Of a DNA stretch of 64,000 nucleotides, positions 28,387 to 62,326 are shown piece after piece. Numbering within the stretch: the stretch's first letter is position 1; every line of letters begins with the position of its first letter. The notes under the pieces are model-generated. The model saw nothing but the letters and a program-made list of their open reading frames with translations. It ran no database searches and was not told the origin of the DNA. The stretch comes from an uncultured Acidobacteriota bacterium (GTDB lineage: Bacteria > Acidobacteriota > Thermoanaerobaculia > UBA5066 > Gp7-AA6), in the NCBI GenBank assembly GCA_963764715.1, contig CAVXTP010000022.1, positions 256,001 to 320,000 on the forward strand, written 5' to 3'. The position numbers were made by a program, and so were the translations under genes.

Positions 28387-29319
28387 TCAGGGAATCGGGG
28401 TGGCCGGGGCGGCGCCGACGGGCGCCCGACGGATCGGAGCCGGGGCGGAGAGGGCGCGCTCCGCCCGCTGGTCCAGGAACTCGAGGTAGGAGCCCCACGC
28501 GGCGACGCGCACCGCCGAGCGCACCCAGAGGACCAAGAACTGGAGGAGGAAGAGCCCCGCGATCGCGATCGGCGACGCGGCCGACACCGACCAGGCCAGG
28601 GCGAAGAGACCGAACCATACGGCACCGCCCGCGACGAGCCAGAAGGCAAAGAGCCCGAGGGCCTCCCCCCGGGAGCCGCGCAGCGCCCGTCCGGCGAACC
28701 TCCAGGCGCGCCAGGCTCCGATCGCGGGCACGTAACGCCGCGCGGCGCGCGCGAAATCGTAGTGGAGCGAGAGGACTCCCCACAGGAACACCGCGAGGAC
28801 GCCGAGCCCCCAGTGCCAGGCCGTGCGGCTCGCGGCGTCGGGCGGAACGTTCTCGAAGATCTTCTTCGCGGCCGCGAACGCCCCGCCGAAGAGCGCGCCG
28901 AAGACCACGACGAGGAAGACCGCGAAGAGAAAGAAGCACTTGACGTTGTGCCAGAAGTTCCGCCGGGCGGGCTCGAAGAACTGCCCGAATGCGAACGGCC
29001 CCCGCCCGAGGACACCGATGATTCCGCCGGCGAAGAACATCTGGAGAACGACCGTGAGCAGGAGGCCGTACCGGGAGCCCGACAGGACGCCGGTCACCGC
29101 TGCCGCCTCGAACCGGAGGAAGTCGAAGAAGTCGGTCGGCGCCGCCGTCGGGTGGTTCCTCAGGAAATGATCGCCCGCGAGCGTTCCGCCCAGCTCCTTC
29201 ACGAATACGCCGTGGAGGGGCGCGGCCGTCCCGGCGGCGACGACCGCCGTCGTCACCGCCAGCAGGAGGATGAGCTTGCCGTGACCGAGCGCGCGGAATC
29301 CGGCCGCGAGACTTCTCAT
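28387..29319 (-). CDS. multi-TM hypothetical membrane protein
   Basis: ATG overlaps the M1 peptidase stop; about 6 hydrophobic segments. Confidence 0.7.
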   Translation of the reverse strand: MRSLAAGFRALGHGKLILLLAVTTAVVAAGTAAPLHGVFVKELGGTLAGDHFLRNHPTAAPTDFFDFLRFEAAAVTGVLSGSRYGLLLTVVLQMFFAGGIIGVLGRGPFAFGQFFEPARRNFWHNVKCFFLFAVFLVVVFGALFGGAFAAAKKIFENVPPDAASRTAWHWGLGVLAVFLWGVLSLHYDFARAARRYVPAIGAWRAWRFAGRALRGSRGEALGLFAFWLVAGGAVWFGLFALAWSVSAASPIAIAGLFLLQFLVLWVRSAVRVAAWGSYLEFLDQRAERALSAPAPIRRAPVGAAPATPIP

Positions 29320-31451
29320 GCCAGGACCCACGCGAGCTGGTCCCAGATCCCGAGGAGGAAGGCCGCCAGGCCCGTGTACCTGGCCGGAGCGTGGGGGGAG
29401 AGAACCGCCGCCGCCCCCCGGCCGCTCGCGAGGACCTTCGAATCGTTGAGTCGGTTCCAGTCCCACGCGTTGCGGCGGTCGGGATCGACGACCGCCCAGG
29501 CCAGTTTCGACTTGTAGCGGATTTCGTAGCGCACCCATTTCGCCGCGGCCGGCAGGTCGCGCTCGAGGATGGTCCCGTCTTCGAAGGCGATGCGGGCGTG
29601 GGCCGCGTGCTCCCAGCCTCCGGTGTTGCCGAAGAGGACGCGGATCGCGTAAACCTTGCGCTTCTTGCCCTTCGCCGGAGGCTGCTTGTCCTTCTCGGGA
29701 AGAACGATGCGGCCGTCGTCGAGCGTCACGCGGCCGGCGGAACGATCGAAGACTCCCTCGTCGGGGTTGGCCTCGCGGCACCGGGCGGTGACGACCTCCC
29801 AGTCGAGGCGCGCCGTGCCCTCGACGAGGTTACGGCGGTAGGTCGAGAGGTCCTTTCCCGAGACGCGCTCGAACGTGCGGAAGAAGTCCGTGGTCGTCGG
29901 ATGGCGGAAGGACCACTCCTGGAAGTACGCCCGCTGCGCGCGCGCGAAGACCGTGGCCCCGAGGTCGTTCTTGAGCTGGGCCATGAAGAGGCCGACCTTC
30001 GGGTAGGAGTTGACGCCGTAGGAGGCGCCCGAGGCGTAGCACCAGGCGCAGCGCCGGATCGGGTCGAGGTTGGGAAGGAAGTTGTATTGGGAATGCGCGA
30101 CCGAGATCGAGTCCGTTCCGATGCCCCCCGGGAGGTTGACCTCGTCGCGCTCCCCGTAGGCGAGCGCCATCGCGCGGTGCTCGGAGTCGTCGTTCAGGCC
30201 CTCGTCGAGCCACGACTCCTCGAACTCGTTGGATCCGACCATGCCGTACCAGTACTGGTGGCCGAATTCGTGGATCGTGACGACCTCGACGATCCGGACG
30301 CGCTGGAACGGCCACCGCATCAGGAAACTCTTGATGACGCCGCCCGTGATGAACGTCGGGTACTCCATTCCGGCCGAGCCCATGCCGTCGTCCGGGGGAT
30401 CGACGACCGTCAGGGTCTCGTACGGGTAGGCGCCGTACCAGAGGCCGTAGAAGGACAGGGCTTCCTTCGTGCAGCGCAGGTAGCGGTCGCGAACCGCCTC
30501 GTGGCCGGGCTGGAGGAGGAGCCGGACCTGCACGGGCTTGAGCGCGATCTCGGCTTCCGTCATGCCGAGCTCCTGCGCCGCCTTGGCGCTCCAGCCCGCG
30601 GGGACGTCGCGGGCCGGGTCGAAGGTGAACTCGGTGACGAGCCAGCGCGGGTCGGCCGTCCAGGCGAAGTCGTGGACGTCGTTCTGCACGTAGCGATACG
30701 TCGTCTTGTCGCCCGACTTCGTCTCCGAGACGCGCTTTCCCGTCGCTCCGACGATGAACTTCGACGGGACCGTCATGGAGACGTCGAAGCGGCCGTAGTC
30801 GGCGTAGAACTCGGAGTTGCCGTGGAACGCGTGGCAGTTCCAGCCGCCGGTCCTGCGCTCCCGCATCCCGGCCGGCTCGTAGACGCCGATCTTCGGAAAC
30901 CACTGGCCGACGAGGAAGTAGTCGCGCACGAAGCCCGTTCGGGCGAAGATGCGCGGAAGCTTGGCGTCGAAGACGACGTCGAGGACGATCTCCCCGCGCG
31001 GGGGAACGGGGGAGGAGAGCGGGACGGCGAGCACCGTCTGGTCGTCCGGGTCGTTGCCGTCGGGCTGGATGAAGCGGGCCCGGGGCCGAAGCTCCTCGCC
31101 GGCGGCCGTCTTCATCGAGGAGACGTCGATCCAGCCCCAGTCGGCTGGCTTGTCGCCCGCCTCGTCGCCCCGCAGCTGTCCCCCGGATTCGCGCATGAAG
31201 GTCGTGCGGTTGTTCTTGAAGCCGTTCAGGTACAGGTGGAACCGCAGCTCGGAGACCGTGTCGGTCGAGGGGTTGCGCCAGGTCAGGCGCTCGCGGCCGT
31301 GGAGCATCTTCGTCGCCGGGTCGAGCGAGACCTCGATCCGGTACTCGACGACCGGCGGGGACGGCGGCGCGGCCGCCGCGGCCGGCCGGGCGGGCGCGGC
31401 GAGGGCCAGGGCCGCGAGCGGCGCTCCAAGGACTTTCCCGGAGATTCGCAT
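29316..31451 (-). CDS. M1-family zinc aminopeptidase, secreted with hydrophobic C-terminal tail
   Basis: signal peptide; GMEYP (GAMEN-like), HEFGHQYW...EESWLDEG (HEXXH-x18-E), WFPK, VHDFAW. Confidence 0.92.
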   Translation of the reverse strand: MRISGKVLGAPLAALALAAPARPAAAAAPPSPPVVEYRIEVSLDPATKMLHGRERLTWRNPSTDTVSELRFHLYLNGFKNNRTTFMRESGGQLRGDEAGDKPADWGWIDVSSMKTAAGEELRPRARFIQPDGNDPDDQTVLAVPLSSPVPPRGEIVLDVVFDAKLPRIFARTGFVRDYFLVGQWFPKIGVYEPAGMRERRTGGWNCHAFHGNSEFYADYGRFDVSMTVPSKFIVGATGKRVSETKSGDKTTYRYVQNDVHDFAWTADPRWLVTEFTFDPARDVPAGWSAKAAQELGMTEAEIALKPVQVRLLLQPGHEAVRDRYLRCTKEALSFYGLWYGAYPYETLTVVDPPDDGMGSAGMEYPTFITGGVIKSFLMRWPFQRVRIVEVVTIHEFGHQYWYGMVGSNEFEESWLDEGLNDDSEHRAMALAYGERDEVNLPGGIGTDSISVAHSQYNFLPNLDPIRRCAWCYASGASYGVNSYPKVGLFMAQLKNDLGATVFARAQRAYFQEWSFRHPTTTDFFRTFERVSGKDLSTYRRNLVEGTARLDWEVVTARCREANPDEGVFDRSAGRVTLDDGRIVLPEKDKQPPAKGKKRKVYAIRVLFGNTGGWEHAAHARIAFEDGTILERDLPAAAKWVRYEIRYKSKLAWAVVDPDRRNAWDWNRLNDSKVLASGRGAAAVLSPHAPARYTGLAAFLLGIWDQLAWVLA

Positions 31452-31492
31452 GAACGGGCCGAATGCTGTCCCGTGCCCCCCCGGGGAGTCAA

Positions 31493-31498
31493 TACAAT
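31493..31498 (+). promoter_or_regulatory. -10 element, leaderless-like start of the sphingolipid operon
   Basis: TACAAT 7 nt before ATG 31506 with no SD. Confidence 0.5.
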
Positions 31499-31505
31499 TC
31501 CCCGG

Positions 31506-32513
31506 ATGCGGACCGCGCTTCTCACGGGAGGAACGGGCTTCGTGGGCAGCCACGTCGCGCGCGCGCTCGTCCGGGAAGGCTGGTCGGTCCGCCTTCTCGC
31601 GCGGGACCCGGGGCGGGTCGATCCCGCCCTCGTCTCGGGTCAGCCGATCGAAGTCCTCGCCGGCAGCCTCGACGATCGTCCGTCCCTCGCGCGGGCCGTC
31701 GCGGGAGTCGGCGCGATCGTCCACGTGGCCGGCCTGACCAAGGCGCGCACGCTCTCGGAATATCGGGACGTCAACGTCGGCGGAACCGAGCGCCTGATCG
31801 AAGCGGCGCGGCAGGCGTCGCCCGAAGCGCACTTCGTCCTGGTGTCGAGCCAGGCGGCGGCCGGCCCCTCGACGGGTGGTCGGCCGATCGGACACGCGGA
31901 CCCGGCACGGCCGATCTCGTGGTACGGGGTCTCCAAGCGGGAGGGCGAGAAGGCGGTGGAGCGTGCCTGGCCGGGGCCGTGGACCGTCCTGCGTCCGGGA
32001 GTGGTTTACGGGCCCGGCGACCGCGGTCTTTTCGTCTATTTCAAGATGGCCTCGACCGGGTGGATCCCGGTCCCCGCCGGCAGGACGCGGATCCAGCTGA
32101 TCGGCGCCGAGCGCGCCGCCGTCGCGATCGCGCGGGCCGCCGCGGCGCCCCAGCTCGCCCGCCAGGTCCGGTTCCTGAGCGACCCCGGCGCCGTTTCGGT
32201 CGGCGCGCTGGCCTCCGCGATCGCGGGGGCCTCGGGCCGCCGGGGACGGATGATTCACGTTCCCGACGTCGTCGTGCGGGCCCTCGGGCGGGCGGAAACC
32301 CTCGTGGAGACCGTCACCCGGCGGTCCCGCCCGTTCAACGCCGACAAGGCCCGGGAGCTCCTGGCGGGCGACTGGATCTGCGACGCCGGCCCGGTCGAGC
32401 GGGAGCTCTCCCTGCCGCCCCCCGTGCCCCTGCCGGAGGGCCTCGCCGCCGCCTGGGCCTGGTACCGGGGGGCCGGCTGGCTCCCGGAAGGCCCCCGGGG
32501 CGCGGCTTTGTAA
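31506..32513 (+). CDS. NAD-dependent epimerase/dehydratase (extended SDR); candidate ceramide reductase (CerR-like)
   Basis: TGGTGFVG, HVAG, VSSQAAAGP, YGVSK (YxxxK), LRPGVVYGPGD; immediately upstream of spt. Confidence 0.8.
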   Translation: MRTALLTGGTGFVGSHVARALVREGWSVRLLARDPGRVDPALVSGQPIEVLAGSLDDRPSLARAVAGVGAIVHVAGLTKARTLSEYRDVNVGGTERLIEAARQASPEAHFVLVSSQAAAGPSTGGRPIGHADPARPISWYGVSKREGEKAVERAWPGPWTVLRPGVVYGPGDRGLFVYFKMASTGWIPVPAGRTRIQLIGAERAAVAIARAAAAPQLARQVRFLSDPGAVSVGALASAIAGASGRRGRMIHVPDVVVRALGRAETLVETVTRRSRPFNADKARELLAGDWICDAGPVERELSLPPPVPLPEGLAAAWAWYRGAGWLPEGPRGAAL

Positions 32514-32570
32514 AATTTGCTAAGATCCGGGGCGCTGATTCGTCAGACGCTCACAAGGCAGGGGGAAGCA

Positions 32571-33812
32571 ATGAGCAAGGTCGCCCGGGCGATCCGACCG
32601 GAGACGGTGGGGACAGCTCCGGTTTTCGAGAAGTGCTACCGGTACGAAGATGCGACGCGGGTCCGTCAGACCGGCTATTACTCCTTCTTCCGCGTGATCG
32701 AGTCCGCCCAGGACCCGGAGGTCGTCCTGGACGGGCGGCGCCTCGTCATGATGGGCTCGAACAACTACCTCGGGCTCACCAACGATCCCCGCGTCAAGGA
32801 AGCCGCGATCGACGCGATCCGGAAGTACGGATCCGGATGCGCGGGAAGCCGTTTCCTGAACGGAACCCTGGATCTGCACGTCCGTCTCGAGGAGCGCCTC
32901 GCCCAGTTCATGCGGCAGGAATCGGCCGTGACGTTCTCGACCGGCTTCCAGGTCAACCTCGGCGCGATCGCGTGCCTCGTCGGCAAAGGAGACACGGTCT
33001 ACCTCGACAAGCAGGACCATGCCTGCATCATCGACGGCGCCCGGCTGTCCTTCGGCGACGTCAAGAAGTTCAAGCACAGCGACCCGGCCGACCTTCGCCG
33101 CCAGATGCGCAACGACGGGGAAGCCAAGGGGCGCCTCGTCGTGGTCGACGGGGTCTTCTCGATGGAGGGCGACATCGCGCCGCTGCCCGAGATCGTGGCC
33201 GTGGCGCGGGAGTTCGCGGCGGGCGTGATGGTCGACGACGCCCACGGCATCGGGGTCCTCGGGCCCACCGGCCGGGGCACGGCCGAACATTTCGGCCTCG
33301 AGCACGAGGTCGACCTCATCATGGGGACCTTCTCGAAGTCGATGGCCTCGGTCGGCGGCTTCATCGCGGGCAACGCGACCGTCATCGACTACGTCAAGCA
33401 CCGCGCCCGGACGCTGATCTTCTCGGCGGCCCCGCCGCCGGCCTCGGCCGCGGCCGCGCTCGCGACGGTCGAGATCATGGAACGGGAGCCCGAGCGGCGC
33501 GAGCGGCTCTGGGAGAACACCCGCTTCTTCGCCGAGGGCCTCCGCTCGCTCGGCTTCGACACCGGCGAGTCCCGGACCCCCGTCGTTCCCATCGTGGTCG
33601 GCGAGGACCTGACGGCGCTCCGGATGGTCCACCGGCTGCAGGAAGAGGGCGTGTTCGTCAACTGCGTCCTCTCGCCCGCGACGCCGCCGGGCCGGGCCCT
33701 GATCCGCACCTCGCTGATGGCGACGCATTCGCGCGCCCAGCTCGTCCGGGCGCTCGAGGCCTTCGAAAAAGTCGGACGCGAGGTCGGCCTCGTTCGGGTC
33801 GCCAGCGTCTGA
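32571..33812 (+). CDS. spt: serine palmitoyltransferase (alpha-oxoamine synthase family)
   Basis: GSNNYLGL, GSGCAGSRFLNGT, FSTGFQVNLG, HACIIDG, DGVFSMEGD, DDAHG, MGTFSKS (PLP Lys); neighbours CerR- and bCerS-like genes. Confidence 0.8.
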   Translation: MSKVARAIRPETVGTAPVFEKCYRYEDATRVRQTGYYSFFRVIESAQDPEVVLDGRRLVMMGSNNYLGLTNDPRVKEAAIDAIRKYGSGCAGSRFLNGTLDLHVRLEERLAQFMRQESAVTFSTGFQVNLGAIACLVGKGDTVYLDKQDHACIIDGARLSFGDVKKFKHSDPADLRRQMRNDGEAKGRLVVVDGVFSMEGDIAPLPEIVAVAREFAAGVMVDDAHGIGVLGPTGRGTAEHFGLEHEVDLIMGTFSKSMASVGGFIAGNATVIDYVKHRARTLIFSAAPPPASAAAALATVEIMEREPERRERLWENTRFFAEGLRSLGFDTGESRTPVVPIVVGEDLTALRMVHRLQEEGVFVNCVLSPATPPGRALIRTSLMATHSRAQLVRALEAFEKVGREVGLVRVASV

Positions 33813-33828
33813 CGGCGCCGCGTCTCCC

Positions 33829-34980
33829 TTGAGCCCGACTTCCTCCACCGACGTCGTCATCCAGCGGATCGGCCGAACGCGGGCCGACTTGGAGCGGTTC
33901 TTCGACGTCGCCGACCGCATCTACGCGGCGGATCCCAATTTCGTGGCGCCGCTGCGCTCGGACGTCGCCAAGGTCTTCCAGGACGAGAACCCGTTCTTCC
34001 GGCACGGCGAGATCCAGCTCTTCGTCGCCCGGCGGGGCGAGAAGGACGTGGGCCGCGTCGCGGCGATCCTCGACCGCAATCACAACTCCTTCCACGGGGA
34101 GAAGGCGGCCTTCTTCGGGTTCTTCGAGACGATCGACGACCCGGAGGTCGCGGGACGGCTCCTCGACGCGGCCGCGCTCTGGGGGCGCGAGCGCAAGATG
34201 ACCGTCTTGCGCGGCCCGACGAACCCCACCTTGAACGACGAGGCGGGACTCCTCGTCGACGGCTTCGATTCGCCTCCCGTGCTGATGATGACCTACAACC
34301 CCCGGTCCTACGCGGCCCTCATCGAGGGCCAGGGGTTCCACAAGGCCAAGGACCTGCTGGCTTACTGGTTCCCCCTCGAGGAGAAGCCGCTCGAGCGGCT
34401 TTCCCGGGTCGCCGACCGGTTCCGGAAGCGGGCGCCGGACATCGTCGTCCGCAACGTGACGAAGTCCGGCCTGGCGCGGGACCTCGCGAAGATCCGGGAG
34501 GTCTACAACGAGGCCTGGGAGAAGAACTGGGGCTTCGTCCCGATGACCCCCGAGGAGATGGACTTCATGGCCGCGCGGTTGAAGCCCCTCCTCGTCGCCG
34601 AGCTGCTCTGGATCGCGGAGGCAAAGAAGCCGGACGGCGGGCTCGAGCCGATCGCCTTCATGCTGATGCTGCCGGATTACAACGTCGCGATCGCCCCGAC
34701 CCGGGGGAGGCTGCTGCCCTTCGGCTGGCTGAAGTTCCTGCTCGCGCAGCGCAAGATCAAGACCGTGCGCGTCCTGATCCTCGGCGTCAAGCGGCCCTGG
34801 CGGATGTCGGGCGTCCAGTCGATCATGATGGCCGACTCGCTGCGCTTCCTGCTCGGGAAGGGCTACACCGGGGCGGAAGTCTCGTGGCTCCTCGAGGACA
34901 ACGAGCTCGTGATCGGGGCCGTCCGCCTCTGGGGCGGCAGGCTCTACAAGACCTACCGGATCTACGAGAAGCCGCTGTAG
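33829..34980 (+). CDS. tandem-GNAT N-acyltransferase; candidate bacterial ceramide synthase (bCerS-like)
   Basis: GRVAA...FGFFE, RGP.NP..NDE.GLLVDGF, MTYNP.SY, YNEAWEKNWGFVP, SWLLEDN, KTYRIY. Confidence 0.8.
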   Translation: MSPTSSTDVVIQRIGRTRADLERFFDVADRIYAADPNFVAPLRSDVAKVFQDENPFFRHGEIQLFVARRGEKDVGRVAAILDRNHNSFHGEKAAFFGFFETIDDPEVAGRLLDAAALWGRERKMTVLRGPTNPTLNDEAGLLVDGFDSPPVLMMTYNPRSYAALIEGQGFHKAKDLLAYWFPLEEKPLERLSRVADRFRKRAPDIVVRNVTKSGLARDLAKIREVYNEAWEKNWGFVPMTPEEMDFMAARLKPLLVAELLWIAEAKKPDGGLEPIAFMLMLPDYNVAIAPTRGRLLPFGWLKFLLAQRKIKTVRVLILGVKRPWRMSGVQSIMMADSLRFLLGKGYTGAEVSWLLEDNELVIGAVRLWGGRLYKTYRIYEKPL

Positions 34981-35039
34981 GGGCGGGGCTCGTCCCCGCC
35001 CTCAGGCGCCGAAGGACAGGCACAAGGCCCGCCCCCTAC
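34977..35039. repeat. inverted pair of GTAG-family REP palindromes (REPIN-like)
   Basis: GTAG GGGCGGGG CTCGT CCCCGCCC (+, 34977-35001) and GTAG GGGGCGGGC CTTGT GCCTGTCC (-, 35014-35039); each GTAG contains the stop codon of a convergent gene. Confidence 0.75.
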
Positions 35040-35929
35040 GCTGTGCTTGGCGCGGAGGCTGAGGCTCGGGCCCGACCGGCCATGATCCGGTCGTAGATCC
35101 AGTCCCCGATGGGCACGCTGACGAACGCCAGCGTCGTCCCCGCGATCAGGTCGATGACGTAGTGGAACCGGCAGAAGACCGTCGAGATGATCAGGCCGGT
35201 CGCGATCGGGAGAAGGATCCAGAACACGTCCCGCGCCCGCTTCCACGCGACGAGCAGCACGGCCACCGAGATCATCGTGTGTCCCGAGGGGAAGACGTCG
35301 AGCTTGGTCTTCTCGAGGTGGTTGATGCTGTCGTTGATGACCCGCGCGACCGGGGACTCGGTCAGCGACTTCGTGTAGAGCGAGGCCTGGGCGAAGCGCG
35401 GCCCGAGCGCCGGGATCGTGAAGTAGCCGGCGTAGGAGACGTAGTAGACGACCATGAGCGTGAACACGTAGCGGCGGGCGGTCGCGCGGTCGCGGGCCCA
35501 GAGGACGAGACCGAGCGACAGGGCGATGAAGTAATAGGTCGCGTAGAATACGTAGAGGACGTCGTTGACCCCGGGCCGCGCGAACCGCTCCAGCCAGACC
35601 GTCACGTCGACGCCGAAGATCGCCCGGTCCGCGGCGATCAGGAGGTCGTCGCGGGCGCCGCCGCGGGTCGCCATGATGAGGGGCGAGAGGGTGTTGAACA
35701 GGATCGGAAGGAAGATGGCGGGGTAGAAGTCGAGGAAAATAGTCACCGGGGCCGGCAGGTCGTCCTCGCGCTTGGCGAGGGGGACGATCACGCCGATGGC
35801 CGCGGCGAGTGCGCCGTAGGCGAGCAGGTTGCCGTTGGGGTTGCCGAGGCGGTCGTAGAAGATGACCGTCAGGACCGCGAGGATGGCGATCGCACCCAGG
35901 TGGATGGCCTCGGTTGGTCGGATGCGCAC
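35036..35929 (-). CDS. PAP2-superfamily integral membrane phosphotransferase, Aur1/inositol-phosphorylceramide-synthase-like
   Basis: 'LIAADRAIFG', 'YATYY', 'GYFTIPALGPR', 'DVFPSGH', 'STVFCRFHYVIDLIAG' (H...H..D triad) typical of the Aur1/IPC-synthase branch. Confidence 0.75.
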   Translation of the reverse strand: MRIRPTEAIHLGAIAILAVLTVIFYDRLGNPNGNLLAYGALAAAIGVIVPLAKREDDLPAPVTIFLDFYPAIFLPILFNTLSPLIMATRGGARDDLLIAADRAIFGVDVTVWLERFARPGVNDVLYVFYATYYFIALSLGLVLWARDRATARRYVFTLMVVYYVSYAGYFTIPALGPRFAQASLYTKSLTESPVARVINDSINHLEKTKLDVFPSGHTMISVAVLLVAWKRARDVFWILLPIATGLIISTVFCRFHYVIDLIAGTTLAFVSVPIGDWIYDRIMAGRARASASAPSTA

Positions 35930-35977
35930 GCGCCTTTATAACCGACCCGGGGCGGGTGCGATAGACTCGAGGCTCCC

Positions 35978-37282
35978 ATGAAAGCGCGCGCGTGGCTCGC
36001 CGCCGCGGCGTTCGCGGCCGCCGCCGCCTCGCCCTCGGCGCCGACCGGCCCCCTGGTGGTGACCGGCCGGATCGACACCATCGTCCATCCCGCCGCCGCC
36101 GACTATCTCCGGAGGCTCCTCGAGGACGCGCAGTCGGACGGCGCGGCGCTCGTCGTGCTGATGCTCTCGACGCCGGGCGGCCTTCTCGCGTCGACGCGCG
36201 ACATGAGCTCGGCGATCCTCGCCTCGAAGGTCCCCGTCGCGACGTTCGTGGCGCCTTCGGGCGCCCAGGCGGCCTCCGCCGGCTTCTTTCTCCTCCTCTC
36301 GGGCGACGTCGCGGCGATGGCGCCGGGAACTAACACCGGCGCGGCGCACCCCGTCGGCGGCGAAGGGCAGGAGCTGCCCAAGACAATGAACGAGAAGGCC
36401 GAGCAGGACGCCCGCGCGTTCGTCCGGACGCTCGCGCGGGAACGGGGCCGCAACGTCGCGAAGGCGGAGGCGGCCGTCGAGAAGAGCGTCTCCTACACGG
36501 ACACGGAAGCGCGGGAGGCGGGCCTCATCGAGGTCATCGCGCGGGACGTCCCCGACCTCGTGGCGCAGCTCGACGGCCGGACCCTCCGGCGGGTCGGCGG
36601 AACGGAGACGAAGCTCGCGCTCGCGGGGGCCCGGATCGAGAGCCGCGACATGGGGCGCCTGGAGAAGCTTCTCGGCGTCGTGTCCCACCCCAACGTCGCC
36701 TACGTCCTCTTCCTCCTGGGCCTCGTGGGCCTCTACTTCGAGCTCTCGACGCCGGGCGCCATCCTGCCGGGGGTCGTCGGCGGGATCTCGCTCCTGCTGG
36801 CGCTCTACGCGTTCTCGGTCCTGCCGGTCAACATCGCGGGCCTCGCCCTGATCCTCTTCGCGATCCTGCTCTTCGTGGCCGAGATCAAGGTCGTCAGCCA
36901 CGGCCTGCTCTCGCTCGGCGGAGCGATCGCCCTGATCGCCGGCTCGCTCCTGCTCTTCACCGGCAAGGGGGACGCCGCCGGCTACCGCGTCGATCTCGGG
37001 ATCATCGTTCCCGGCCTCGTCCTGACGCTCGCGATCGTCGGGCTCCTGACCTGGAAGACCCTCCAGCTGCGGCGGACCGTTCCGCGCACGGGACTGGAGG
37101 CCATGGTCGGCACCGACGGGCGGGTCGTCGACGGCTTCGGCCCGGGCGCCGCGCGGGGGCGCATCCAGGTCGTTGGCGAGTACTGGGAGGCGGCCGGACC
37201 GGAGGGGCTCGTCCCCGGCGACGCGGTCCGCGTCGTGCAGGTCGACGGGAACACGCTGCGCGTGGAACGGAGGAACCCATGA
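35978..37282 (+). CDS. nfeD: NfeD (long form with ClpP-like serine protease domain)
   Basis: [26 protein letters not shown] region, C-terminal OB fold 'GEYWEA'. Confidence 0.92.
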
Positions 37283-38037
37283 GTCTTTTCTCGCTGCCCG
37301 GGCTCGCGGTCGCCGGCTTCGTCGGCCTGCTCTTTCTCTTCAAGTGGATCAACGTCCTGAACGAGTACGAGCGCGCCGTCACGTTCTGGCTGGGTCGCCT
37401 CGGAAAGGTCCCGAAGGGGCCGGGTCTCGTCCTGATCTTCTGGCCGTTCGAGCGGATGGTGCGGATCTCGCTGCGCACCGTCGTCCACGACGTGCCGCCC
37501 CAGGACATCATCACCAAGGACAACGTCTCGGTGAAGGTCAACGCCGTCGTCTATTTCCGCGTCGTCGCCCCCGAGAAGGCGGTCGTCCAGGTGGAGAACT
37601 ACCTCTACGCGACCTCGCAGCTGGCCCAGACGACGCTGCGCAGCGTGCTCGGTCAGGCGCTCCTCGACGAGCTCCTGTCGGAGCGCGAAAAGCTCAACCT
37701 CGACCTCCAGAAGGTCATCGACGAGCACACGCAGCCGTGGGGCATCAAGGTCTCCCTGGTCGAGGTCAAGCAGGTCGACCTGCCGCCGGAGATGCAGCGC
37801 GCGATGGCCAAGCAGGCCGAGGCCGAGCGCGAGAAGCGGGCGAAGATCATCCACGCCCAGGGAGAGCTCGAGGCCGCGACCGCGTTGTCCAAGGCGGCCG
37901 AGATCATCGACCGCCAGCCGGCGACGCTGCAGCTGCGATATCTCCAGACCCTGACCGAGATCGCCAACGAGAAGAATTCGACGATCGTTTTTCCGCTGCC
38001 GATCGACCTGATCTCGATGTTCCTGAAACGGGGCTAG
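37279..38037 (+). CDS. SPFH/stomatin (slipin) family protein
   Basis: [57 protein letters not shown]. Confidence 0.95.
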
Positions 38038-39679: not shown

Positions 39680-41209
39680 GTGGCGGTCGGGACCGGTCGC
39701 TGGCGCACCCTCGGGGCGGGCGCCGTTTCGGGGATCCTCTTCGCCCTGGCCTTTCCGCCGTTCGGCTGGGTCGTCCTCCTCCCGCTCGCCTTGATCCCCT
39801 GGATCGTCGCGCTCTCCGTCGAAGAGAGCCGCACGCGGGCGCTCTTCTCCGGCGTCGTCTTCGCCTTCGCCTACTGGTGCCTCTCGATCCGGTGGATCGC
39901 CTACGTCGTGACCGTGTACGGGGGACAGAGCGGGGTCATGGGGATCGTGAGCCTCGGGCTGACCGCGGCGATCCTGTCGCCGCCCTTCGCGCTGGTGGGC
40001 TGGGGCATGGTCGCCGTCGCCCGTCCGGGGCGGGGCGCGCGTCTCGCGGTCTTCCCGCTGCTGTGGGTCGCGGGAGAGCACCTGCGCACGATCTTCGCCG
40101 CTGGATTTCCGTGGAACCTGACGGCGCACGCGCTCTACCGGCACCCCGTCTGGCTCCAGTCGGCGTCCGTCTGGGGGGTCTACGGCGTCGGGGCCGCCGT
40201 CGCGGCCGTCTCGGCGCTGCTCGCCCGGGCCGCCCGGACGCGCCGGCTTCGGCCCGCCGTCATCGCGGCCGGCCTCGTCCTGGCGTTCGGCGTCTTCGGA
40301 GCGATGCGGCTCGGCCGCCCCGGGGAGGCGGGGCCGGAGCTCCCGGTGGCGCTGCTCCAGCCCAACCTGACGGAGGAGGACCGGTCGACGTCCCGCTCCC
40401 GGGTCGACGGCTACCTCGCCGTCCTCGCCCAGCTCGACGAGGCCGCGCGCCGCGGCGCGGAGCTTCTCGTCGTCCCCGAGTCCACGCTGCCGATCACCTG
40501 GCAGGGAAGCGAACGCCTGCGAAGCGATCTCGGCGCGATCGCCGCGCGCGGCCCGATGATCCTCTTCAACGACTTCGAGGAGGAGAGCGAGGAGCGCTAC
40601 TTCAACGTCGCGCGGCTCCTGGACCGGAACGGCCTCGCCGGGCCGCCGTACCGCAAGGTGCACCTGGTGCCCTTCGGCGAGTACGTGCCGCTGCCGCGGC
40701 TCTTCTTCTTCGTCCGGAGGATCTCGCGGGCCATCGGCGAGTTCACCCCGGCGCCGGGCCCGGTGCTCCTGAGGAGCGGGCCGGTCGCGATCGGCGTCGG
40801 CGTCTGCTACGAGATCATCTATCCGTCGCTCGCGCGCCGCGAGGTCGCCGACGGCGCCAACCTGCTGGCGACGGTCTCGAACGATTCCTGGTACGGGCGG
40901 GGCGGCGCGCAGCAGCAGCACTTCGCCGGCGCCCTCCTGCGCTCGGTCGAGACGGAGCGCTACCTCGTGCGGGCCGCGATCACGGGGATCTCGGGGATCG
41001 TCGATTCCCGGGGCCGGATCCTCGCCGAATCCCGGCCGGACGAGAAGGCCATCGTGTTCGGACGGGTGCGGCTCGAAACGGCGATGACGCCGTGGACGCG
41101 CTGGGGCCATCGGCTTCCGGCCGTCGCCGACGCCGCCGCGCTCGCCGTGCTAATCTTCGGCCTCGCGCGCGCCGGACGCGGCCGCCCGCGACCCATGACC
41201 TCCGCATGA
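39680..41209 (+). CDS. lnt: apolipoprotein N-acyltransferase
   Basis: GFPW, LQPN, VPES, YRKVHLVPFGEY, CYE, SNDSW, RAAITGIS. Confidence 0.95.
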   Translation: MAVGTGRWRTLGAGAVSGILFALAFPPFGWVVLLPLALIPWIVALSVEESRTRALFSGVVFAFAYWCLSIRWIAYVVTVYGGQSGVMGIVSLGLTAAILSPPFALVGWGMVAVARPGRGARLAVFPLLWVAGEHLRTIFAAGFPWNLTAHALYRHPVWLQSASVWGVYGVGAAVAAVSALLARAARTRRLRPAVIAAGLVLAFGVFGAMRLGRPGEAGPELPVALLQPNLTEEDRSTSRSRVDGYLAVLAQLDEAARRGAELLVVPESTLPITWQGSERLRSDLGAIAARGPMILFNDFEEESEERYFNVARLLDRNGLAGPPYRKVHLVPFGEYVPLPRLFFFVRRISRAIGEFTPAPGPVLLRSGPVAIGVGVCYEIIYPSLARREVADGANLLATVSNDSWYGRGGAQQQHFAGALLRSVETERYLVRAAITGISGIVDSRGRILAESRPDEKAIVFGRVRLETAMTPWTRWGHRLPAVADAAALAVLIFGLARAGRGRPRPMTSA

Positions 41210-42328
41210 CCGAACGCGACGATCTCGTCTCCGCTCTCGGGGCCGCCTCGGAGCGCCTGCTGGCGCTTCGCGGCTATCTTTGATCAGGACGCCGCGCGGA
41301 GCGCGCTCGACGCCCTGAGGGAGAAGGCCGCCGCGCCCGACTTCTGGTCGCGGCCGGAGGAGGCCCAGGAGAACCAGCGTCAGACCCGGGGGCTCGAAAA
41401 GAAGATCGAGAGCGTGAAGCGTCTCGACGATCTTCGGAGCGAGCTCGAGGCCTTCGCCGAGCTCCTCGGCGAAGGCGAGCCGGCCGACAAGGAGGCCCGG
41501 GAATCGCTCGCGGCGGCGACGTCGTTCGCCGACGAGCTCGAGCTCGCGGTCAAGATGGGCGCGCCCGAGGACGCGAAGAACGCGTGGATGTCGATCCACG
41601 CCGGCGCCGGCGGGACGGAGTCCCAGGACTGGGCCGAGATGCTCCTCCGGATGTACATGCGCTTCGCCGAGTCGCGCGGCTGGAAGGCCGAGCTCATCGA
41701 CCGGCAGGACGGCGAGGAGGCGGGCATCAAGAGCGCCACGCTCCACATCGTCGGCGACCACGCCTACGGGTACCTCCGGGGCGAGATGGGCGTCCACCGC
41801 CTCGTCCGGATCTCGCCCTTCGACGCGGCGCAGCGCCGGCACACCTCGTTCGCGTCCGTCTACATGGCCCCCGAGATCGACGACGACATCGAGATCGAGG
41901 TCGCCGACAAGGACATCCGCGTGGACACCTATCGCTCGAGCGGCGCCGGCGGACAGCACGTCAACGTCACGGACTCGGCCGTGCGCATCACCCACCTGCC
42001 GACGGGGATCGTCGTGACCTGCCAGAACGAGCGCAGCCAGGGCCGCAACCGCGAGATGGCGATGCGGGTCCTCAAGGCCCGCCTCTACCAGAAGGCCCTC
42101 GACGAGCGCCGCGCCGACGAGGAGAAGCGCGCCGGAGAAAAGAAGGCGATCGAGTGGGGAAGCCAGATCCGTTCGTACGTCCTCCACCCCTACCGCATGG
42201 TCAAGGACCACCGCACGGGCTTCGAGAGCGGCGACACGGACCGCGTGCTCGACGGGGGCCTGACGCCCTTCGTGGAGGCCTACCTGAAGTCGGCGGCGGA
42301 CGGCAGCCGCGCCCGTGCCTCCTCCTGA
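41206..42328 (+). CDS. prfB: peptide chain release factor 2 (programmed +1 frameshift at 41278-41283)
   Basis: ORF1 ends LRGYL-TGA; +1 frame continues D...PDFW, GAGGTESQDW, SPF, GAGGQHVN, WGSQIRSY. Confidence 0.97.
41269..41284 (+). promoter_or_regulatory. prfB autoregulatory +1 frameshift site
   Basis: CGCGGC TAT CTT TGA T; slippery CTT-TGA conserved, internal SD degenerate. Confidence 0.9.
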
Positions 42329-49750: not shown

Positions 49751-50935
49751 ATGGCGCAATCCAACGGCGTTTTCATCCTCGACGGGGCGCGGACCGCGAT
49801 GGCGGAGTACAACGGCGCTTTCGCCGACGTCACGGCGATCGACCTCGGCGTCCACGCCGCCCGGGAGGCCCTGCGCCGCAGCGGCGTCGAGCCCGGGCAG
49901 ATCGACCACGCGATCTTCGGCAACGCCCTGCAGACCTCGGGCGACGCGATCTACGGCGCCCGGCACGTGGCGCTCAAGGCGGGCGTGCCGAAGGAGGTCC
50001 CGGCGCTGACCGTCAACCGCCTGTGCGGGTCCGGCTTCGAATCGATCGTGCAGGGGGCGCACCGCATTCTCCTCGGGGAGGCGAAGACGGTGCTCGCGGG
50101 CGGGATGGAGAACATGTCCCAGGCGCCGCACGTCATCCGGGGCGCCCGCAAGGGCTTTCGGCTCGGCCAGGGGCAGCTCGAGGACTCGCTGATGGTCGCC
50201 CTGCTCGACTCCTACTGCGGCCTCTACATGGCCCAGACGTCCGACCGCGTGGCCGGCAAGTACGGCATCACCCGGGCCGCGCAGGACGCCTATGCGCTTT
50301 CCTCGCAGCAGCGGGCGGCCGCGGCCTGGGACTCCGGGCGCCTCGCCGAGGAGGTCGTCCCCGTCGAGGTCAAGGCCGGGCGCAAGACCGTCCGCGTCGA
50401 GCGGGACGATCACCTGCGTCCGGACTCGACGCTCGAGGGCCTCGCCGGATTGCCCCCGTCGTTCGGGAAGGACGGGTCGGTGACCGCGGGGAACGCCTCG
50501 GGCATCGTGGACGGCGCCGCGGCGGTGGTCGTCGCCTCGGAGGATGCGGCGCGCGGCCGGAAGCCGCTCGGCCGCCTCGTGTCCTGGGCGGTCGTCGGCG
50601 TGGAGCCGGAGCTGATGGGTCTCGGTCCGGCGCCGGCGGCGCGCGCGGCGATCCAGAGAGCGGGGCTGTCCCAGAACGACATCGGCCTCTGGGAGATCAA
50701 CGAGGCCTTCGCCGGCCAGATCCTCGGCGTGGTCAAGGAGCTCGGGCTCGACCTCGAGAAGTTGAACGTCAACGGCGGAGCGATCGCGCTCGGCCATCCC
50801 CTGGCCGCGACGGGCACGCGCTGCACGCTGACCCTGCTGAAGGAGATGCGGCGCCGCGGCGTGCGTTACGGGCTGGCCGGCGCCTGCATCGGCGGCGGGC
50901 AGGGCATCGCCGTCGTCGTGGAGTCGGCCGCGTAG
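49751..50935 (+). CDS. acetyl-CoA C-acyltransferase (thiolase)
   Basis: NRLCGSG, GGMENMS, TAGNAS, EINEAFA, GGAIALGHP, CIGGGQG. Confidence 0.96.
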   Translation: MAQSNGVFILDGARTAMAEYNGAFADVTAIDLGVHAAREALRRSGVEPGQIDHAIFGNALQTSGDAIYGARHVALKAGVPKEVPALTVNRLCGSGFESIVQGAHRILLGEAKTVLAGGMENMSQAPHVIRGARKGFRLGQGQLEDSLMVALLDSYCGLYMAQTSDRVAGKYGITRAAQDAYALSSQQRAAAAWDSGRLAEEVVPVEVKAGRKTVRVERDDHLRPDSTLEGLAGLPPSFGKDGSVTAGNASGIVDGAAAVVVASEDAARGRKPLGRLVSWAVVGVEPELMGLGPAPAARAAIQRAGLSQNDIGLWEINEAFAGQILGVVKELGLDLEKLNVNGGAIALGHPLAATGTRCTLTLLKEMRRRGVRYGLAGACIGGGQGIAVVVESAA

Positions 50936-50956
50936 TCGGCGAGCGGGGATCGGGCG

Positions 50957-51295
50957 ATGAACTGGACCGAGCGGATCCTCGAGTTCCCGGTGCGGGCGGC
51001 GGCGGTCGACGACTTCCTGCGGGACCTGCGGGCCCGGGGAGCCGGGGACCTGAACGCCGTCCTGACGACGTTGAACGAGGGCGGCCTGTGCCGGGAAGTC
51101 GTGCGCCGCTGGACCGAGAGCGGCTGGATTGTCGTCGCGCCGAACACGCCGCTGCTGGCCCTGACCGGCCCGGCCTTCGAGCCGGAGCTGACGCTCTCGG
51201 ACTTCTGCAGCGACATCGAGATCCTGGAGACGCCGGCCCTCGCGGGCCCGGAGGCGTCGACGGGGGAGGGGACGGAGGACCATGGCGATTCGTAA
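50957..51295 (+). CDS. hypothetical protein inside the thiolase-hbd-crt operon
   Basis: 112-aa ORF filling the gap with typical codon use; no recognised motif. Confidence 0.6.
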   Translation: MNWTERILEFPVRAAAVDDFLRDLRARGAGDLNAVLTTLNEGGLCREVVRRWTESGWIVVAPNTPLLALTGPAFEPELTLSDFCSDIEILETPALAGPEASTGEGTEDHGDS

Positions 51296-52136
51296 GGTCG
51301 GTGTTCTCGGCGCGGGCCTCATGGGCTCGGGCATCGCCGAGGTGTGCGTGAAAGCGGGCTACGACACGGTGGTCCGCGAGGTCAGCGACGAGCTCGTCAA
51401 GAAGGGGCTCTCGCGCATCGAGGGCTCGCTCGGAAAAGCCGTCGAGAAGGGCAAGCTTCCGGCGGCCGACCGCGACGCCGCCTGGAAGCGGCTCCACTCG
51501 ACGACGAAGCTCGAGGACCTCGCCGATTGCGACCTCCTGATCGAGGCGATCGTCGAAAACCTCGACGTCAAGAAGGAGACGTACCGCGCGCTCGACGCGG
51601 CGTGCAAGCCGGAGACGATCTTCTGCTCCAACACCTCGTCGCTGACGATCACCGAGATGTCCGCGGCGACCAAGCGACCGGACCGGTTCGCGGGACTCCA
51701 CTTCTTCAACCCGGTCCCCGTGATGAAGCTCGTGGAGGTCGTCCGCACGATCGCGACGTCCGAGGAGACCTTCGCGACGGTCTTCGAGTTCGCGAAGTCG
51801 CTCGGCAAGGAGCCGATCCGTACGCACGACAACTCCGGCTTCATCGTCAACCGTCTCCTCGTCCCGTACCTGCTGGACGCGGTCCGGGCCCTCGAGGAGG
51901 GCGTCGGCTCGCGCGAGGACATCGACAAGGGCATGGAGCTCGGCTGCGGCCACCCGATGGGGCCGCTGAAGCTCCTCGACTTCGTCGGTCTCGACACGAC
52001 CTACGCGATCGCCGAGATCATGTTTGCCGAGTACCGGGAGAAGCGCTTCGCGCCGCCCCCGCTGCTGAAGCGCATGGTCCTCGCCGGGCGCTACGGGAAG
52101 AAATCCGGGCGAGGCTTCTACGAGTACGGAGGGTAA
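51282..52136 (+). CDS. hbd: 3-hydroxybutyryl-CoA dehydrogenase
   Basis: GAGLMGSGIA, EAIVE, SNTSSL, HFFNP, GFIVNR, HPMGP..L.D.VGLD, GKKSGRGFY. Confidence 0.93.
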   Translation: MAIRKVGVLGAGLMGSGIAEVCVKAGYDTVVREVSDELVKKGLSRIEGSLGKAVEKGKLPAADRDAAWKRLHSTTKLEDLADCDLLIEAIVENLDVKKETYRALDAACKPETIFCSNTSSLTITEMSAATKRPDRFAGLHFFNPVPVMKLVEVVRTIATSEETFATVFEFAKSLGKEPIRTHDNSGFIVNRLLVPYLLDAVRALEEGVGSREDIDKGMELGCGHPMGPLKLLDFVGLDTTYAIAEIMFAEYREKRFAPPPLLKRMVLAGRYGKKSGRGFYEYGG

Positions 52137-52137
52137 C

Positions 52138-52917
52138 GTGAGCGACTTCGTTCTCGTCGAGACTTCGGACCGCGTCCGCACGCTGACCATCAACCGGCCG
52201 GACAAACTGAACGCGCTGAACGCGGAGGTCATGGCGGCCCTCGACGGCGCGCTCGACGCGGCCCGGGACGACACCTCGGTCGGCGTGGTGATCATCACGG
52301 GCTCGGGCGAGAAGTCCTTCATCGCGGGCGCCGACATCGGCGAGCTCTCGAAGCTCACGCCCGTGGAGGGCCGGGAGCACGCGCGCCGGGGCCAGGCCGT
52401 CCTCGCGAAAATCGAGGCGCTCGGCAAGCCCGTCATCGCCGCCGTCAACGGCTACGCGCTCGGCGGGGGATGCGAGCTCGCGCTCGCCTGCACGATCCGG
52501 ATCGCCTCCGAGAACGCGCGCTTCGGACAGCCCGAGGTGAAGCTCGGAATCCTGCCGGGCTACGGCGGCTCGCAGCGGCTGGCCCGCATCGTCGGCGAGG
52601 GCCGGGCGATGCAGCTCTGCCTGACGGCCGAGCCGATCGACGCGGCGGAGGCCTGGCGGATCGGGCTCGTCAACAAGGTCGTCCCCCCGGGCGAGGCGGT
52701 CGCGGCCGCCCGCGCCATGGCCGCGCAGATCCTCGCGAACGGCCCGGTCGCCTGCCGGTACGTTCTCGAGGCGGTCCACCGCGGCCTCGACCTGCCCCTT
52801 CCCGACGGCCTCCTGCTCGAGGCCACGCTCTTCGGGCTCTGCGCCGCCACCTCCGACATGAGGGAGGGGATGACCGCGTTCCTCGAGAAGCGGCCGGCGC
52901 GGTTCACGGGGAAGTAG
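52138..52917 (+). CDS. crt: enoyl-CoA hydratase (crotonase)
   Basis: NRPDKLNAL, AGADI, GYALGGGCEL, FGQPEVKLG, EGMTAFLEKR. Confidence 0.9.
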   Translation: MSDFVLVETSDRVRTLTINRPDKLNALNAEVMAALDGALDAARDDTSVGVVIITGSGEKSFIAGADIGELSKLTPVEGREHARRGQAVLAKIEALGKPVIAAVNGYALGGGCELALACTIRIASENARFGQPEVKLGILPGYGGSQRLARIVGEGRAMQLCLTAEPIDAAEAWRIGLVNKVVPPGEAVAAARAMAAQILANGPVACRYVLEAVHRGLDLPLPDGLLLEATLFGLCAATSDMREGMTAFLEKRPARFTGK

Positions 52918-52926
52918 GAGCGCGGC

Positions 52927-54099: not shown

Positions 54100-54137
54100 G
54101 CCCTCCCGGTGCTAAACTCGGTGCGGGAGAAGACCTC

Positions 54138-61946: not shown

Positions 61947-62326
61947 CGCGGGGCCCGCTGCTTGTCGAGTGGAACGACGCAGGTTCCGGTGGCGCGGGCG
62001 ACGACCAGGGGCGGGTCGAGGACCTGCGCGGCCGATCCCCCGGAGGGCGCGATGACCTTGCGCGCCTCGAACCGAATCTGGCGGGACGTCCGGCCCGCGC
62101 CCGTCAGCTCGGCCTCGATTTCGAGGTAGTCGCCGCCGTGGACGGGAGCCAGGAACTCGACCGACGCATAGGCCCGAAAGAGGCCTTCGTCGCCGTCGCG
62201 CCGCACGAGGAGCTCCGTCGCGGCGTCGCCGAAGAGCTTGAGGACGAAGGCGCCGTCGACGAGGCCGCCGCCGTAGTGCGCCTGCTCGGCCCCGACCCGG
62301 AGGCGGAGCAGCACCCGGTCGCTCAC
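61943..62326 (-). CDS. kal: 3-aminobutyryl-CoA ammonia lyase (hotdog fold)
   Basis: [20 protein letters not shown]...[17 protein letters not shown]. Confidence 0.92.

Follow-up and report, generated by a model that had tools for sequence, protein, structure and literature searches.

Does one short stretch of an acidobacterial genome encode both the enzymes that build a ceramide and an enzyme that decorates it with a phosphate-linked headgroup? The question is raised by four adjacent genes at positions 31506-35929 of the 64-kb DNA stretch analysed here, which belongs to an uncultured Acidobacteriota bacterium and which as a whole is hereafter called the window. Three of these genes encode an extended short-chain dehydrogenase/reductase (SDR), an alpha-oxoamine synthase (AOS) and a tandem GNAT protein, and the fourth encodes a polytopic membrane protein of the PAP2 superfamily. 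A first-pass annotation of this DNA proposed that the four proteins constitute a self-contained route to ceramide and onwards to a sphingolipid carrying a phospho-headgroup. This proposal is supported by the identities of the genes, a predicted protein fold, active-site conservation and conserved gene linkage, with headgroup transfer as its predicted last step. On the basis of these sequence comparisons and structural models, we judge it modestly probable that the locus is a compact sphingolipid cluster in which a ceramide core is combined with an Aur1-like PAP2_3 headgroup transferase.

The trio of Spt, bCerS and CerR is the established bacterial ceramide route (PMC11087976; PMC11324152; all papers are cited here for those parts of their text that were available to us). 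In the pathway that we propose for the window, serine palmitoyltransferase (Spt) would use serine and an acyl thioester to form 3-ketosphinganine, the tandem GNAT protein of the bCerS family would attach the N-acyl chain, and the CerR-like SDR would reduce the 3-keto group to complete a dihydroceramide route, where the order of acylation and reduction is one that we infer. The PAP2_3 protein would then act in the manner of Aur1 (PMC13133130), through H256, which, activated by D260, would attack the phosphodiester of a glycerophospholipid. Diacylglycerol would be released, and the phospho-alcohol would be handed to the C1 hydroxyl of ceramide to give a phosphosphingolipid. No gene for inositol-phosphate synthase, or for the synthesis of phosphatidylinositol (PI), phosphatidylethanolamine or phosphatidylglycerol, is present among 58 hand-picked genes of the window, a set that leaves some stretches uncovered, and no inositol genes are found among the recurrent neighbours of the 80 related loci described below. 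Given this lack of inositol-lipid genes, and because phosphatidylethanolamine and phosphatidylglycerol are common bacterial phospholipids, our guess is that one of these two is the likelier donor and that the product would be ceramide phosphoethanolamine (CPE) or ceramide phosphoglycerol.

The assignment of the AOS to Spt, as already suggested by the first-pass annotation, is supported by its best NCBIfam model, its best structural match and its position in a phylogenetic tree. The protein matches Pfam Aminotran_1_2 (8.1e-57), and SerpalmtaseCFB ranks at the top of 21 NCBIfam families with 548.8 bits, as compared with 445 bits for a BioF/Kbl-related subfamily, 403 for Kbl and 398 for BioF. The best match in the PDB is the Sphingobacterium-type Spt (8guh/3a2b, 449 bits), and other scores are 341 bits for a Thermus BioF/Kbl enzyme, 300 for Sphingomonas Spt, 273 for a cysteate acyltransferase (28eh) and 272 for Kbl. 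The AOS is 40% identical to Sphingomonas Spt, a reference that scores above its NCBI equivalog cut-off, and the GTFSKS motif that holds the pyridoxal-phosphate lysine is aligned with GTFSKS in that enzyme.

A maximum-likelihood tree (IQ-TREE) of 59 rows was computed from the window AOS, 55 AOS proteins of related loci, the AOS of a Rubrobacter plasmid and two reference Spt proteins, from Sphingomonas and Escherichia coli, both of which score above equivalog cut-offs. Two BioF-like rows (L057 and L072) are split off by a branch with 100/100 support and a length of 2.48, and the reference Spt rows are nested among AOS rows that adjoin GNAT genes, including that of the window, which itself falls in a well-supported clade dominated by Acidobacteriota. 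Of the phylogenetic check that had been suggested against Spt, BioF and Kbl references, the grouping with Spt and away from BioF-like proteins is thus borne out, and Kbl is excluded by profile and PDB scores only, the tree holding no Kbl reference.

The tandem GNAT protein yields no Pfam or NCBIfam match at E 0.01, and its identity was resolved instead by fold, profile and synteny. Its predicted model, with a predicted local distance difference test (pLDDT) value of 93.3, adopts a tandem GNAT fold whose best Foldseek match is 7q3a (E 8e-16; template-modelling score, TM, 0.64/0.71), and 2wpw is also matched (E 1e-14). Homology to the N-acetyltransferase of a Sphingomonas spt cluster extends over essentially the full length (34% identity over 380 of 383 residues, E 7e-67), which agrees with the earlier description of the protein as bCerS-like. 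The C-terminal domain also carries an R-x-x-G stretch (RMSG) that we take to be the acyl-CoA-binding motif of GNAT enzymes. Membership in the bCerS family is therefore supported by sequence, and a role as N-acyltransferase is predicted.

The family to which this protein belongs includes 6960 representatives at E <= 0.001, and six unusually long members were scanned for additional domains. Three of these are natural AOS-GNAT fusions in which an N-terminal Aminotran_1_2 domain precedes the bCerS-family domain (P0276, 780 amino acids; P0341, 777; P0346, 648), a fourth is instead a GNAT-family tandem duplication (P0245, 784 amino acids), and the other two carry no AOS domain. Clusters of the GNAT family in the ESM Atlas bear generic names and are found in Pseudomonadota and Actinomycetota. 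Homologues with 37-39% identity are also located on Roseomonas megaplasmids (H3, H5-H14, H16, H17), where the underlying annotations include NTP transferase or nucleotidyltransferase and, for some, 'dATP pyrophosphohydrolase'.

The remaining enzyme of the proposed ceramide core is the SDR, which matches Pfam Epimerase (2.9e-26) and has both an N-terminal Rossmann motif (GGTGFVG) and a YxxxK motif (YGVSK). It is 31% identical over 327 residues (E 9e-29) to an NAD(P)H-binding protein encoded beside acp and spt in Sphingomonas, and its relatives in the PDB include NDUFA9-type 39-kDa subunits. This full-length similarity to the reductase of the Sphingomonas cluster, together with the two motifs, fits the first-pass description of a CerR-like extended SDR. 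Because of their homology to proteins of the Sphingomonas cluster, the layout of which resembles that of the Caulobacter region, the GNAT protein and the SDR have been assigned to the bCerS and CerR families, respectively. We accordingly propose, from sequence, that the SDR belongs to the CerR family, and predict that it reduces the 3-keto group of a sphingoid base or of an oxidised ceramide. The libraries that were searched with the SDR contain no curated CerR model.

The fourth gene encodes the membrane protein, which we propose as a candidate ceramide phospho-headgroup transferase, a role predicted from sequence and from a structural model. The highest-scoring Pfam family is PAP2_3 (77.3 bits, 1.8e-21), and PAP2 (38.8 bits) and PAP2_C (24.4 bits) are matched as well. 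When a profile was made from 28 syntenic homologues, its best match in the PDB was Aur1 (6.4e-9, profile positions 64-280), whereas PgpB was matched over the last ~80 positions only. The profile aligns FPSGH with FPSLH of Aur1 (which includes H255), HYVVD with HYFVD (H294 and D298), and STVY with STMY. S215, H217, H256, Y257 and D260 are invariant in the 28 sequences, and the triad H217, H256 and D260 is thereby aligned to H255, H294 and D298 of Aur1, each of which is essential for activity (PMC13133130). An AF2 model of the protein (pLDDT 94.3; predicted TM score 0.91) likewise has Aur1 structures as its top Foldseek matches (9ivc, E 9.3e-6, and then E 2.1e-5), with 293-295 aligned columns and with TM 0.60/0.63 to 9vj4, as compared with E 4e-3 and TM 0.34 for PgpB and E 0.42 for SMSr. 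The four lines of evidence, namely the PAP2_3 match, the profile, the fold and the alignment of active sites, agree with the first-pass reading of this protein as Aur1-like.

Canonical PAP2 phosphatases are recognised by three motifs, which are C1 (KxxxxxxRP), C2 (PSGH) and C3 (SRxxxxxHxxxD). The window protein does not carry the full set: C2 is present (FPSGH), but C1 was found neither in its sequence nor in the 28-member alignment, and C3 reads S-T-V-F-C-R-F-H-Y-V-I-D, with T where phosphatases have R. Eight membrane helices are predicted, and from these and the positive-inside rule we infer that the catalytic loops bearing H217, H256 and D260 face the periplasm. The presence in the window of genes for Tol-Pal, LptE, OmpA-family and Lnt proteins shows that it derives from an organism with two membranes. 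Clusters of the PAP2 family in the ESM Atlas have generic names and occur in Acidobacteriota and Myxococcota.

The connection between the PAP2 gene and the ceramide genes was assessed by comparing related loci. One genome per species was scanned with the GNAT alignment, and of 599 pattern-matched stretches, 597 encode a relative; the best 80 of these 597 were analysed, and 53 of the 80 have at least 3 kb of sequence on both sides. Greedy calling of open reading frames (ORFs) lost the GNAT ORF in 18 of the 80 loci, which are high in G+C, to ORFs that are longer and, in the one case checked, on the opposite strand; neighbour counts were therefore taken from tblastn coordinates. In 54 of the 80 loci (39 of the 53 with both flanks), the GNAT gene has an AOS gene no more than 3 kb away, and in 46 of 80 it has an SDR homologue at a distance of up to 5 kb. 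PAP2 homologues are present within 3 kb in 26 of 80 (19 of 53), and two more neighbours recognised by blastp (in L011 and L038) raise the number of loci in which PAP2 adjoins GNAT to at least 28.

When all neighbouring ORFs of the 80 loci were clustered, only GNAT, AOS, SDR and PAP2 proved to be widely recurrent. The next family, with 13 loci, is by its coordinates an opposite-strand ORF of the GNAT gene itself, and this is followed by a histidine kinase in seven loci. Four gene orders are observed: SDR>AOS>GNAT><PAP2 in Thermoanaerobaculia, a Nitrospiraceae metagenome-assembled genome (MAG) and a 'delta proteobacterium' MAG; SDR>PAP2>GNAT>AOS in Bryobacterales and Solibacteraceae (L040, L051 and L053); AOS>GNAT>SDR>PAP2 in Gemmatimonadota and Eisenbacteria; and GNAT><PAP2<SDR<AOS in Verrucomicrobiota. 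According to record titles, the linkage of GNAT and PAP2 extends to Acidobacteriota, Verrucomicrobiota, Gemmatimonadota, Nitrospirota, Thermodesulfobacteriota, Latescibacterota and Eisenbacteria, and PAP2_3 is the best Pfam family in all 19 syntenic PAP2 homologues that were scanned, out of 26. The genes for an M1 peptidase, NfeD and SPFH proteins, which also flank the cluster in the window, provide an internal control, as they recur almost only in six Thermoanaerobaculia-type loci. The recurrence of PAP2 beside the GNAT gene in four different orders supports a functional link, and because the four-gene arrangement reappears in related loci of many phyla, we do not attribute it to chance.

A number of observations count against the favoured pathway, and these are weighed here along with the explanations that compete with it. 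It is possible that the ceramide core operates as described but that the PAP2_3 protein acts as a lipid phosphate phosphatase rather than a headgroup transferase, in which case its substrate might be ceramide-1-phosphate, a sphingoid-base phosphate or an envelope lipid such as phosphatidylglycerol phosphate, undecaprenyl pyrophosphate or lipid A 1-phosphate. Most characterised bacterial PAP2 enzymes are phosphatases, and in single-sequence searches the window protein finds E. coli PgpB first, both in the PDB (1.7e-8) and in NCBIfam (26.7 bits). Aur1 is not among its PDB matches at E values up to 1, and the model for the Bacteroides PI-dihydroceramide synthase (PhinosDhcerSyn) gives it 21.5 bits against a cut-off of 480. 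The similarity of the structural model to Aur1 is only moderate (TM 0.50-0.63, identity 15-16%), and the near-invariant R178 and R254 stand beside the catalytic motifs, close to the active site, at positions that are W and H in Aur1. These arginines could serve the hydrolysis of phosphate monoesters and, as residues that Aur1 does not share, they leave room for a phosphatase. The NCBIfam models for LpxE and PgpB also match 14 and 13 of the 28 family members, respectively, but PhinosDhcerSyn is the family that matches most of them (17 of 28). Moreover, Aur1 is the best match by both profile and fold over nearly the whole protein, whereas PgpB aligns with the C-terminal ~80 residues only; the C1 motif is absent, C3 begins with S-T as in Aur1 and not with S-R; and no ceramide kinase-like gene that would provide a phosphorylated substrate recurs beside the cluster. 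On balance, we consider a phosphatase rather unlikely.

A different concern is the substrate of the AOS, which scores below every Spt equivalog cut-off (548.8 versus 640 bits for SerpalmtaseCFB, 415.9 versus 500 for BetaP and 330.1 versus 670 for AlphaP). All the non-proteobacterial GNAT-adjacent AOS proteins that were scanned (six of 55) likewise stay below the equivalog cut-off, with scores that range from 444 to 609 bits. The enzyme might therefore not use serine, or not exclusively, and might give rise to a non-canonical amino-lipid, for example 1-deoxyceramide from alanine, with the PAP2_3 protein acting elsewhere than on the C1 hydroxyl of ceramide; a Black Sea study, in which 1-deoxy- and lysine-ceramides are reported, puts forward the idea that Spt-like enzymes are relaxed in their choice of substrate (PMC11334938). 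Such a pathway is improbable in our view, given that the best matches of the AOS are named as serine palmitoyltransferases and outscore every non-Spt model or structure by over 100 bits, that the cysteate acyltransferase reaches only 273 bits, and that the reference Spt proteins nest in the same large group of the tree. In addition, a linked Aur1-like enzyme would be sensible only if a C1 hydroxyl is present, and a C1-hydroxyl-directed enzyme in the cluster would thus argue for a serine-derived base. We regard as very improbable the idea that the PAP2 gene is an unrelated housekeeping neighbour of the operon, on the opposite strand and perhaps with its own transcription. This idea would fit the convergent orientation of the gene, the hairpin that separates it from the GNAT gene, and the 52 of 80 GNAT loci that have no PAP2 neighbour. 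The linkage is also imperfect in that five loci (L007, L010, L020, L031 and L037) have a GNAT-PAP2_3 pair and no AOS within the locus stretch, and in that the AOS of L067 lies ~5 kb upstream. Nevertheless, besides AOS and SDR, only PAP2_3 recurs widely by GNAT, in four orders and about seven phyla; it is co-stranded with neighbouring cluster genes in three of these orders (in Verrucomicrobiota, with SDR and AOS); and the incidental M1 peptidase, NfeD and SPFH neighbours are almost all lost outside the class. A ceramide core serving an Aur1-like headgroup transferase thus remains our preferred interpretation of the locus. The more specific claim, that the PAP2_3 subfamily is a bacterial CPE or ceramide phosphoglycerol synthase distinct from both the Bacteroides PI-ceramide synthase and the Caulobacter pathway, is advanced tentatively and with somewhat less than even confidence.

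The boundaries of the four genes were chosen with the aid of third-position GC content and ORF lists, the window being ~70% G+C and its raw ORF lists consequently crowded with spurious frames. All motifs quoted in the first-pass annotation are present in the resulting translations (Table 1), including GCAGSRFLNGT, STGFQVNLG and GTFSKS in the AOS, NWGFVP and WLLEDN in the GNAT protein, and PALGP, FPSGH and HYVID in the PAP2 protein. The ATG chosen for the AOS is preceded by a GGGGGAAG ribosome-binding site, the GNAT gene begins 16 bp past the AOS stop codon, and 55 bp separate the convergent GNAT and PAP2 genes. Wherever the closest homologues of the GNAT and PAP2 proteins (66-100% identity) carry a name, it is 'Thermoanaerobaculia bacterium', and the records of the most similar loci bear the titles Acidobacteriota or Thermoanaerobaculia, in agreement with an origin in a Thermoanaerobaculia-type acidobacterium.

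Table 1. Genes and intergenic elements of the putative sphingolipid locus (window coordinates).
Feature	Position	Strand	Remarks
CerR-like extended SDR	31506..32513	+	335 aa; Pfam Epimerase
Spt-like alpha-oxoamine synthase (AOS)	32571..33812	+	413 aa; frame open from 32517
bCerS-family tandem GNAT	33829..34980	+	383 aa; TTG start
PAP2_3 / Aur1-like polytopic membrane protein	35036..35929	-	297 aa; GTG start
Divergent intergenic region (53 bp) between M1-family peptidase gene and SDR gene	31453..31505	.	
G+C-rich hairpin between convergent GNAT and PAP2 genes	34980..35002	.	fold energy compared with shuffles

Upstream of the SDR gene, an M1-family peptidase gene is transcribed from the minus strand with its ATG at 31452. 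The promoter of the three-gene operon presumably lies in the divergent region between the two, and a consensus scan of this region found no sigma-70 promoter. The hairpin between the GNAT and PAP2 genes has a nine-pair stem and a fold energy of -24.9 kcal/mol (z -2.17; five of 200 shuffles fold equally well). It has no T run, and a terminator scan made no call at this site, but the hairpin may act as a two-way terminator. A promoter and terminator scan of positions 31200-36200 returned a single promoter-like site, which falls within the Spt gene, and two intragenic terminator-like sites; the latter were no more numerous than in shuffles, and none of these sites was used. Nothing in the window reached the gathering score of an Rfam family.

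The order of M1 peptidase, sphingolipid cluster, NfeD and SPFH/stomatin-like genes, which in the window extends from the peptidase gene at 29316..31452 (-) to a NfeD/SPFH pair of the membrane-microdomain type at 35978..38037 (+), is kept in six loci (L001-L004, L033 and L067), even where GNAT identity is 44-46%. Outside these Thermoanaerobaculia-type loci, there is only a distant SPFH match in L018. Among the loci with a GNAT-PAP2_3 pair and no AOS, L007, L010 and L031 are Verrucomicrobia-like, and the title of L007 ('Bifidobacterium sp.') is doubtful. The record title of L010, 'Akkermansia muciniphila', is not trusted either, since neighbouring genes encode DUF1559 and N_methyl proteins, and nothing was drawn from this locus. 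On a plasmid of Rubrobacter radiotolerans (NZ_CP007515.1, 4731-10323; L082), AOS, GNAT homologue and NAD(P)-dependent oxidoreductase genes are followed by one for an LTA synthase family protein, which may represent a different kind of headgroup enzyme on the same three-gene core.

Elsewhere in the window, the release factor 2 gene at 41206..42328 (+) has a classical programmed +1 frameshift, whereby the frame that opens with ATG at 41206 reaches CTT TGA T at 41278-41284 and the PCRF/RF-1 frame resumes as an ORF at 41414..42328, whose Pfam match starts at profile position 44. Two overlapping ORFs in different frames, 12065..14323 and 12381..13586 (+), match positions 2-130 and 270-339 of the SBP_bac_5 profile and could reflect a frameshifted gene or a sequencing error. 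Genes for a thiolase, a 3-hydroxyacyl-CoA dehydrogenase, an enoyl-CoA hydratase and an HMGL-like protein are located at 49751..55391 (+), and those at 61125..63998 (-), where the window ends, encode a beta-keto acid cleavage enzyme, a thioesterase and both subunits (beta and alpha) of a lysine 5,6-aminomutase-type enzyme. Together, these two sets point to the fermentation of lysine or its breakdown into short-chain acyl-CoAs.

A paper on ceramides in an acidobacterium reportedly exists, going by its title, and the statement of the first-pass annotation that no such lipids are known to have been characterised chemically in this lineage is therefore partly outdated, all the more so as the core trio has been reported in 38 phyla. 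Specifically, Spt-like genes, often with adjoining bCerS and CerR genes, have been described from MAGs of those phyla (PMC11334938). Soil ceramides correlate with an amplicon sequence variant of the Vicinamibacteraceae (PMC9969633), and phosphosphingolipids and ceramides have been reported from soils and sediments (PMC12619533; PMC9969633). Literature searches for a PAP2- or CPE-type sphingolipid synthase in bacteria returned only the Bacteroides inositol work and the eukaryotic SMS, SMSr and Aur1 enzymes, and searches for enzymes that add phosphoethanolamine or phosphoglycerol to bacterial ceramides found no description, neither result being proof of absence. Nothing more specific was found for sphingolipids in Thermoanaerobaculia or Acidobacteria, and the term PAP2 does not appear in the available portions of two relevant papers (PMC11334938; PMC11324152).

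As a representative of a known system, the ceramide core of the window is unremarkable. Since this core is already known to be widespread, the new element is the Spt-linked, Aur1-like PAP2_3 subfamily. Bacterial ceramide synthesis has been worked out only recently, and a PAP2_3 subfamily that is linked to bCerS and Spt in about seven phyla offers a concrete and clonable candidate for a headgroup synthase. Such a candidate would tie genes to the phosphosphingolipids and ceramides of soils and sediments, and to a phylum that dominates many soils. If our interpretation is correct, a headgroup transferase is carried alongside bCerS and Spt in abundant soil and sediment phyla, and phosphosphingolipids would be a widespread class of membrane lipid in Acidobacteriota, Verrucomicrobiota, Gemmatimonadota, Nitrospirota and others.

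The closest functional precedent for the core is the proteobacterial pathway. The genes of the Caulobacter region are named aasR, cerR, acpR, spt and cerS (PMC11324152); CC_1164, CC_1163, CC_1162 and CC_1154 correspond to cerR, acpR, spt and cerS, and CC_1156/1155 to LptF2/LptG2 (PMC11324152). A tblastn search of plasmid records identified a Sphingomonas parapaucimobilis replicon with a GNAT homologue, on which the order is NAD(P)H-binding protein, acyl carrier protein, Spt, ATP-binding protein, LptF, LptG, desaturase and N-acetyltransferase; the last of these, located after lptF-lptG, corresponds in position to CC_1154 after CC_1156/1155. The window encodes the same three families, with identities to the S. 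parapaucimobilis proteins of 40% (Spt), 34% (N-acetyltransferase) and 31% (NAD(P)H-binding protein), the match to Caulobacter being one of layout. It differs in that its trio forms one tight operon, in that no dedicated acyl carrier protein, acyl-ACP/AMP ligase or LptF/LptG paralogue is encoded nearby, and in that its Spt is nearest to the CFB-type model rather than to the Alpha- or Betaproteobacterial models. It also has a PAP2_3 headgroup candidate, whereas the Sphingomonas and E. coli clusters are without PAP2_3.

E. coli YghO provides another point of comparison, as it is a full-length homologue of the window GNAT protein (33-34% identity, E 3e-62) and is encoded beside a gene named spt in RefSeq. 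Unlike the window locus, its cluster has an acyl carrier protein, a ligase and LptFG paralogues, and no PAP2_3. In the E. coli PN43 record NZ_MG591698.1 (358-8137; L083), yghO lies near genes for a fatty acyl-AMP ligase, an SDR, an acyl carrier protein, spt and LptF/LptG paralogues, next to glcC, and the spt product scores 599.9 bits with SerpalmtaseBetaP, above the cut-off of 500. Of 5426 complete E. coli genomes, 4068 contain at least 80% of the 5.6-kb yghO-spt stretch.

For the PAP2 protein, three groups of characterised enzymes can be compared. The phosphatases PgpB, LpxE and YodM resemble it in their superfamily fold and in having the catalytic histidines and aspartate of C2 and C3, but sequence similarity is restricted to the C-terminal ~80 residues, and the TM to PgpB is 0.34. 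The Aur1 homologue BT_1522 of Bacteroides thetaiotaomicron has been shown genetically to add a phospho-headgroup to dihydroceramide, and its gene belongs to an inositol-lipid cluster that also encodes MIP synthase and PIP synthase and lies apart from spt (PMC9246714). Its model (NF052609) matches most of the syntenic PAP2 members (17 of 28, with a best E-value of 5.5e-8), but the window protein itself, at 21.5 bits against the cut-off of 480, is therefore no orthologue of BT_1522. The syntenic PAP2 family also differs from BT_1522 in adjoining bCerS and Spt, with no inositol genes in the window or among recurrent neighbours. Relative to fungal Aur1 (9ivc, 9vj3, 9vj4), no Kei1-like partner is evident for the window protein, and its arginines stand at the positions of the Aur1 W in PAAPPW and of H293. 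Nevertheless, it is with Aur1 that the window protein shares the His-His-Asp triad, the S-T-x-Y...H-Y-x-x-D motif and a nearly full-length fold.

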